A program made the translations under genes and the position numbers. From a virus (Duplodnaviria > Caudoviricetes): a stretch of 64,000 nt of DNA. The stretch lies in IMG/VR virus record IMGVR_UViG_3300034095_001474, positions 96,001 to 160,000 of that record; one strand, written 5' to 3'. The notes beneath the pieces are model-generated. The model was given only the letters and a program-made list of their open reading frames with translations. It was not told where the DNA came from and did not search any database. Of this stretch, positions 48,864-49,098 are shown in pieces. The number at the start of each line of letters is the position of its first letter. Position 1 is the stretch's first letter.

Positions 48864-48893
48864 AAAAAAAAGCCTTGATTGTAGTCAAGGCTT
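48864..48893 (-). terminator. Attenuator terminator of tRNA operon 4
   Basis: AAGCCTTGA-CTACAA-TCAAGGCTT plus a U tract. Confidence 0.88.
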
Positions 48894-48918
48894 CTTTGTT
48901 AATATTATCTGGAGTGTT

Positions 48919-49017
48919 TTACCACTCTATGATGTCATTAAGCATACCTTGACCGTTATGGTGACTATTGCGTCTCCAATTCGAAATCGAAATCATATGT
49001 ATGTTAATTGTTCTCAT
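48919..49017 (-). CDS. Leader peptide of tRNA operon 4 (R/I/N/H/M/S/W)
   Basis: MRTINIHMISISNWRRNSHHNGQGMLNDIIEW; GTCAAGGT complementary to GCCTTGAC. Confidence 0.82.
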   Translation of the reverse strand: MRTINIHMISISNWRRNSHHNGQGMLNDIIEW

Positions 49018-49067
49018 CGTTTTTATATTAAATATATTGTTTTTTCTAAAAGTTTTAATTTATACTA

Positions 49068-49098
49068 CAAATGTACGAACTTTATTTTGATTTGTCAA
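49068..49098 (-). promoter_or_regulatory. Bacteroidota-type promoter for tRNA operon 4
   Basis: TTGACA...TACATTTG, then AACTTTTAGAAA...ATATTTAA. Confidence 0.8.

Follow-up and report, generated by a model that had tools for sequence, protein, structure and literature searches.

The 64,000-nt window analysed in this work, to which all positions given below refer as a whole, covers positions 96,001-160,000 of the IMG/VR virus record IMGVR_UViG_3300034095_001474, classified in Caudoviricetes. The locus studied, cassette D, has every feature on the minus strand and presents, in this order, a promoter of Bacteroidota type, an ORF of 32 codons, an intrinsic terminator, a gene for a protein of 66 aa and 12 tRNA genes; the promoter is preceded by an ORF of 147 aa that ends at 49128. 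The main features of the locus, together with the three further cassettes of the window, were the following:

49068..49098, minus strand: promoter of Bacteroidota type (TTGACA at 49098-49093 and TACATTTG at 49075-49068)
49018..49060, minus strand: A/U-rich 5' UTR with a conserved ATATTTAAT motif, from the aligned 5' regions of 37 D-type cassettes plus cassettes A-C
48919..49017 (49017..48919), minus strand: leader ORF of 32 codons plus stop, starting MRTINIHMISISNWRRNS, with 36 distinct homologues in IMG/VR
48864..48893, minus strand: intrinsic terminator (AAGCCTTGA, a 6-nt loop, TCAAGGCTT; 8 T in all)
48650..48850 (48850..48650), minus strand: gene for the 66-aa protein, putatively the first regulated cistron, with 23 homologues
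46190..48678, minus strand: putatively regulated array of 12 tRNA genes, from ARAGORN and Rfam
11681-11420, 25390-25145 and 28878-28660: cassettes A, B and C of the window

Promoter, tRNA array and small protein gene

The four cassettes of the window shared a near-identical promoter, 5' UTR and M-K/R-T start, and each of them carried a different leader. The 33-nt promoter pattern occurred four times in the window, as near-identical copies each located ahead of a leader ORF; the search of IMG/VR with this pattern returned a single match, in an unrelated GC-rich contig. In cassettes A-C a terminator was also present and the leader matched the array that follows it. With respect to these three, cassette D displayed the largest amino acid set (seven) and the longest array, and it was the only one of the four with a protein gene before the first tRNA. 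Its leader ORF has no Shine-Dalgarno sequence, and its transcription start is one that we infer. Motifs AACTTTT and ATATTTAAT were common to the 5' UTRs of many cassettes and relatives (49018-49060 and cassettes A-C), and many relatives had a small GC hairpin added ahead of the start codon.

The Bacteroidota promoter pattern was found on the minus strand of 49200-45800 only at 49075 and at 46164, the latter being located beyond the last tRNA. No promoter of the form TTG..TAnnTTTG appeared on the minus strand between these two positions, a search in which non-canonical promoters may remain. Without a canonical promoter of their own, the 66-aa gene, the 12 tRNAs and the ORFs inserted among them would depend on read-through of the terminator.

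The array comprised, in order, His, Trp, Ser(TGA), an Ile(GAT)-like gene, CAT, three Asn, CAT, Arg(ACG), Arg(TCT) and Ser(GCT). Ten of these genes were detected by ARAGORN, down to 46190, and Rfam added the second CAT tRNA (47296-47368) and the Ile(GAT) tRNA (48000-48080). The amino acids of the 12 tRNAs were exactly H, W, S, I, M (CAT anticodon), N and R, so that the twelve-gene His to Ser array and the seven amino acids of the original prediction, which had been made from the sequence of the window, were both recovered. That prediction described the array as following the leader and did not mention the 66-aa gene lying between the terminator and tRNA-His; moreover, the run of twelve tRNAs, all of them present, includes an aberrant Ile(GAT) gene and its continuity is broken by an HNH gene, an ORF of 160 aa and a further small, basic ORF. 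The individual genes referred to in the text were these:

48678-48604, minus strand: tRNA-His
about 48092-48280, minus strand: small basic ORF inside the array
47369-47962, minus strand: gene for an HNH endonuclease that has a helix-turn-helix at its N-terminus, flanked by Ile(GAT) and the first CAT tRNA
47296-47368 and 46959-47032, minus strand: CAT tRNAs
46357-46839, minus strand: 160-aa ORF inside the array

The Ile(GAT) gene was structurally aberrant, reaching 40 bits with Rfam and lacking a D arm at the expected site; 3' of its anticodon arm there was a stretch resembling a D loop, and the relative L002, an IMG/VR contig, presented a normal Ile(GAT) gene at the matching position. The space of about 260 nt between tRNA-Ser(TGA) and tRNA-Ile (48085-48345, minus strand) held a basic ORF of 62 aa, and its DNA was 92-98% identical to that of contigs L014, L054, L002 and L010, as compared to about 56% for the flanking protein (in L002); this stretch may be mobile or under unusually strong constraint. 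As to the two CAT tRNAs, one search carried out for their typing returned no match and the other gave only distant tRNA-Met annotations. It is plausible that one of them is an Ile2 tRNA reading AUA, because ATA is present among the sensor codons and accounts for 30% of the Ile codons of the phage.

A boxA-like motif was located at about 48575-48595 on the minus strand. Its sequence TTTGACNTATTGGTT occurred twice in the window (at 48577-48591 and at 11371-11385, both on the minus strand) vs. 0.05 occurrences expected, and it was also found after tRNA-His in L002 and L014; it recurs and is therefore a real element. This part of the original prediction held; the motif lies after tRNA-His, around 270 nt past the terminator, and not in the leader. 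Its likeness to boxA was judged against the E. coli consensus. The motif may function as a weak promoter inside the array, as a signal for processing or as the binding site of a factor.

The ATG of the 66-aa gene lies 14 nt past the U run of the terminator and the last 29 nt of the gene overlap tRNA-His. In every relative with enough sequence this gene was the first cistron after the terminator. The protein belonged to no Pfam or PHROG family and had no convincing neighbour by language model; its AlphaFold2 model (pLDDT 80) found no fold match in PDB or AlphaFold clusters. A homologue was present in a 635-kb uncultured phage, L103 (LR745206.1, about 584980-585195), in which neither a leader cassette nor a tRNA within 3 kb on either side of the homologue was found.

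Amino acid composition of the leader and its relatives

The composition of the leader peptide was strongly restricted. As originally predicted, 20 of its first 21 codons specify R, I, N, H, M, S or W, the sole exception being Thr3, which is part of the M-K/R-T start common to the four cassettes. The codons that would act as sensor are the following:

48964..49008, minus strand: codons 4-18, reading I N I H M I S I S N W R R N S, a stretch that in relatives is likewise built almost wholly from the set

All 18 residues from position 4 to 21 were within {H,W,S,I,M,N,R} and none of the 18 was within the sets of the other three arrays. The seven residues make up 29.7% of phage proteins, and with this background the binomial probability of at least 19 out of 20 residues in the set is 1.4e-9; among approximately 43,000 stop-free windows of 20 residues in the six frames, only two reached 19/20. 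When the four leaders were compared with the four arrays, the true pairing scored 53 and the next best of the 24 permutations 34. The leader contains codons of both Arg boxes (AGA, CGC) and both Ser boxes (TCG, AGT) along with ATT, ATA, ATG, CAT/CAC, AAT/AAC and TGG; if one CAT tRNA reads AUA, each of the 10 anticodon species of the array has at least one leader codon. Rare codons, TCG and CGC, appeared in the sensor. Throughout the family TCG represented 26 of 66 sensor Ser codons vs. 3% of the Ser codons in phage genes, and CGC is 1% of the Arg codons in those genes.

Leaders of this family were widespread in IMG/VR, in contigs of about 4 to 370 kb, and a total of 36 distinct homologous leaders and 37 unique D-type cassettes were collected. 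A neighbouring protein of 488 aa led to contig L002 (56% identity), in which a cassette like D is followed by His, Trp, Ser, Ile, Asn, Arg and Arg tRNAs. Searching with the DNA pattern of codons 1-9 only retrieved 23 IMG/VR stretches, in all of which the NWRRNS block came next; the pattern of the NWRRN codons only retrieved leaders with shuffled N-terminal parts made of the same seven residues (for example MQAISIIHIMSSI and MQSSIIHISNSM). In the 36 leaders, residues from position 4 through NWRRNS were within the set in 535 of 538 cases (319 of 322 before the block, without NWRRN), and past the sensor in 172 of 440. Ser codons alternated between TCG and AGT/AGC among relatives, and the few replacements observed (Ile to Ser, Ser to Asn, Ile-Ser to Arg) were all within the set. 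These codon-box switches and in-set replacements indicated that selection acts on the amino acids decoded and not on the sequence of the peptide.

The tRNAs that accompany the leaders agreed with this composition. Within 6 kb downstream of D-type leaders and on the same strand, 291 out of 300 tRNAs were His, Trp, Ser, Ile, Met, Asn or Arg, the remaining nine being three Thr, one Leu and five unassigned. A close relative, L003 (1150-1600; L024 belongs to this contig as well), retained promoter, leader and terminator; its small ORF was a chimera containing a Cys-rich insert, and the 8.9 kb after the cassette were free of tRNA genes. We read this absence as a recent loss; it means that the cassette can persist without tRNAs. 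No cultured phage of the INPHARED collection had the cassette, and no laboratory system is known as a result.

Other arrangements were seen among relatives. Contig L007 (IMGVR_UViG_3300032288_002237) contained two D-type cassettes, separated by about 1.5 kb, whose leaders and terminators differ; between them, after the first, come the small protein gene and a single tRNA-His. In L002 (12243-12995), the 5' half of a tRNA-His-like gene ends in the anticodon loop and is followed by an HNH endonuclease gene and then by a second, complete tRNA-His, an arrangement suggestive of a tRNA gene invaded by homing.

Pairing between the leader RNA and the terminator

The terminator consists of a hairpin of 9-10 bp (48893-48870) followed by a U run, and its arms co-varied across relatives. 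Using the numbering of classical attenuators, in which the terminator comprises regions 3 and 4, the other pairing elements predicted in the leader RNA were the following:

48990..49011, minus strand: region 1, a tentative candidate for the anti-antiterminator strand (AACAUAC and flanks vs. GUAUGUU and region 2)
48934..48955, minus strand: region 2, 5' strand of the antiterminator, in which CGGTCAAGGT (48955-48946) pairs with the 5' arm of the terminator
48912..48927, minus strand: short hairpin GAGUG/CACUC that carries the stop codon of the leader in the loop and caps the antiterminator stem

The pairing of 8 bp between the leader and the terminator arm that had been proposed for this locus was confirmed: GTCAAGGT (48953-48946) pairs with GCCTTGAC in the 5' arm, with one G-U, and no other segment of the leader RNA complements the arm as well (-13.8 vs. 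-4.6 kcal/mol for the runner-up). The pairing continues, since ATGCTTAAT, which comes after CGGTCAAGGT, pairs with ATTAACA immediately upstream of the terminator. Together with the hairpin at the tip, this continuation makes the antiterminator one long stem, with a predicted energy in the window of -20.0 vs. -11.5 kcal/mol for the terminator. The hairpin that holds the stop codon was found in nearly all of the 37 cassettes with stem sequences that differ (mean z -1.85).

Covariation of the antiterminator was measured by duplex tests free of anchors and not from alignment columns, because the MAFFT alignment mis-aligned terminators of different classes. In each of the 37 unique cassettes, the best complement of the 5' terminator arm in the entire leader RNA was located 21-29 nt past the codons for NWRRN, immediately ahead of an internal ATG that is conserved. 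Relatives presented 22 distinct 8-nt cores of the terminator arm, with pairings such as GTCAAGG/CCTTGAC, GTCGGGT/ACCCGAC, TGTCAGG/CCTGACA and GAGACG/CGTCTC. Pairing with the own arm was stronger, at a mean of -12.2 kcal/mol, than with foreign arms, at -7.9 kcal/mol; when the arms were reassigned in 20,000 permutations, not one gave a mean as strong as that observed. A helix of type 1:2, between codons 3-10 and region 2 plus its flanks, fell in a consistent place, with a mean z of only -1.36 and p <= 0.05 in 10 of the 37 cassettes; an anti-antiterminator helix of this kind is plausible but weakly supported.

Across the family, region 2 starts 9-12 nt downstream of the position at which codon 18 begins. 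The size of the ribosome footprint, on which the test of this geometry relies, is well established. The predicted geometry fits a switch in which a ribosome stalled on the sensor would leave region 2 free and a ribosome further on would block it. The same geometry changes the weight of the tandem His codons (19-20) that the original prediction had stressed: region 2 would be hidden under a ribosome that stalls on them, and HH was present in few relatives only. Codons 19-21 of the window (H H N) are thus placed where a stalled ribosome should mask region 2, and the conserved His sensor is codon 7.

Folds of the stalled state were calculated for the RNA located 3' of a ribosome stalled on codon 18, down to the end of region 3, and in 34 of 37 cassettes the fold of lowest energy contained at least five region 2:3 pairs. 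When region 4 was included, most homologues folded as terminator at equilibrium regardless of the position of the ribosome; where an equilibrium antiterminator was predicted, it occurred only for stalls at codon 18 or before (codon 17 or before in the window). When the whole leader was folded at equilibrium with the ribosome masked, the terminator came out every time, in part because such folds included pairs across the ribosome that are impossible. As the terminator usually wins at equilibrium, the switch would have to be kinetic, as happens in classical attenuators. Contigs from two lake metatranscriptomes covered the leader and one of them bridged the terminator; such contigs show neither ends, strand nor level, and DNA carry-over is possible.

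Proposed mechanism, rival readings and meaning

We consider that cassette D is a multivalent leader-peptide transcription attenuator placed over one small protein gene and 12 tRNA genes, a reading based on sequence and comparison to which we assign a probability of roughly 0.8. The phage would probably make the 12 tRNAs only when ribosomes read the corresponding codons slowly. Transcription would start from the promoter at 49098-49068 and ribosomes would translate the leader of 32 codons. Slow decoding of any Ile, Asn, His, Met, Ser, Trp or Arg codon between position 4 and about position 17 would stall the ribosome upstream of region 2 (48955-48946), which, along with the bases that follow it, would then pair with the 5' arm of the terminator and the bases that precede it; this would form the long antiterminator stem, with the stop-codon hairpin at its tip, and RNA polymerase would read through into the small gene and the tRNA array. 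With fast decoding, the ribosome would cross region 2 and reach the stop codon; the terminator, made of the hairpin at 48893-48870 and its U run, would form and transcription would end at about 48864. The new tRNAs would speed up decoding of the leader, which is proposed to result in negative feedback. That the ORF is translated, that ribosomes stall on it, which way the switch works and that it feeds back are all points that we infer.

The original prediction of a ribosome-mediated attenuator whose leader codons match the tRNAs was supported by the composition of the leader, the tRNAs of the relatives, the covariation of the antiterminator and the lack of a canonical internal promoter. Counted against it were the preference for the terminator at equilibrium, the weak 1:2 helix, the cassette of L003 without tRNAs, the fact that the first regulated gene codes for a protein and not for a tRNA, and the misplaced codons 19-21. 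The benefit of such a device would also be limited, given that an extra tRNA would be of no help if the amino acid, and not the tRNA, was limiting.

The same switch might respond to another signal or serve another target, namely a shortage of amino acids or general translation stress and mainly the 66-aa protein, the tRNAs being co-transcribed passengers. This is what could be expected from the location of the 66-aa gene directly after the terminator in every relative with enough sequence and from L003, where the cassette and the chimeric small ORF were kept and the tRNAs were absent; it is also established for attenuators that a stalled ribosome does not distinguish an uncharged from a missing tRNA. 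Cassettes A-C, however, have no 66-aa gene and their leaders nonetheless match their own arrays, the tRNA set after D-type leaders is conserved (291/300), and the 66-aa protein occurs without the cassette in the 635-kb phage, all of which makes this reading improbable. The shuffling of residue order with conservation of composition is a poor fit to a peptide that folds or binds, and argues against the ORF of 32 codons being a functional micropeptide followed by a constitutively leaky terminator, with an incidental match to the tRNAs. The 18 N-terminal residues are highly conserved in many relatives, as would suit a micropeptide, and small phage ORFs followed by terminators are common, but the C-terminal half varies freely while co-varying as RNA with the terminator arm, and the four-way split of amino acids among the four leaders would be left unexplained; we give this possibility very little credit.

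A switch made only of RNA, either by T-box-like binding of tRNA or by a protein-dependent antiterminator, with translation of the ORF being irrelevant, seems scarcely credible to us. A terminator with an alternative antiterminator is indeed the output stage of the T-box and of other riboswitches too. Against this, no Rfam family reached its threshold and there was neither a T-box match nor a Thr_leader match above threshold, the Ser codon-box switches and in-set replacements point to the encoded amino acids, and a single element would need to sense seven tRNA identities. The Rfam leader families (His_leader, Thr_leader, Trp_leader, Leu_leader and others) gave no match at gathering score, the best one being Thr_leader with 21.2 bits vs. 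a threshold of 55, a match that rested on the terminator; for the T-box, no Rfam match was obtained on 48640-49130 even at E values up to 10.

The attenuator proposed for cassette D shares its logic with several known systems. Multivalent attenuators of enterobacteria include the ilvGMEDA leader, with Ile, Leu and Val codons, and the thr leader, with Thr and Ile codons. In common with these, cassette D has a short leader, presumably translated, that is rich in codons for several amino acids, an intrinsic terminator with an overlapping antiterminator whose formation would be set by the position of the ribosome, and a stop codon before the terminator. It differs from them in that the genes under control would be tRNAs and one small protein instead of biosynthetic enzymes, in that seven amino acids would be sensed by means of single or few codons and not runs, and in its location in a phage, with a Bacteroidota-type promoter and no Shine-Dalgarno sequence; it also resembles the Rfam leader families neither in sequence nor by covariance model. 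The four-region layout and the logic of kinetic competition are those of the trp and his attenuators (trpL, hisL), as is a distance between the last sensor codon and region 2 that fits the ribosome footprint; in contrast with trpL and hisL, the 1:2 helix of cassette D is weakly supported and its stop codon is placed in the loop at the tip of the antiterminator and not between regions 1 and 2. As in pheST (pheM leader) and in the T-box control of synthetases, the decoding or charging state of tRNA would be converted into conditional termination of genes of the translation apparatus. Those systems control synthetases, each with one amino acid or tRNA, whereas the output of cassette D would be the tRNA itself, and the T-box binds tRNA directly without a ribosome, unlike the mechanism proposed here.

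To our knowledge, the regulation of phage tRNA genes is largely unknown and the reason why large phages carry many tRNAs is still debated. A full-text search of the literature gave no report of tRNA genes under leader-peptide attenuation, and what appears to be new here, judging from the sequence, is a known attenuation mechanism acting on phage tRNA genes, those of a giant lake-water phage. The translation machinery itself would come under trp-operon logic, in channels separated by amino acid, and tRNA supply would follow a direct read-out of decoding speed. Tentatively, and at less than even odds, the four cassettes could together work as a decoding-capacity gauge of four channels that covers all 20 amino acids, senses the loss of host tRNA in the course of infection and induces only the block of tRNAs needed. 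If this is true, the tRNA loss might come from shut-off of host transcription, decay of host RNA or anticodon-nuclease defences, and the phage would have an inducible and self-limiting counter-measure, in which the first tRNA genes under ribosome-mediated attenuation would be found. Cassette D would also provide a compact sensor of codon-specific decoding, which could serve as a reporter, and evidence that coupling between transcription and translation is exploited in Bacteroidota-type hosts.
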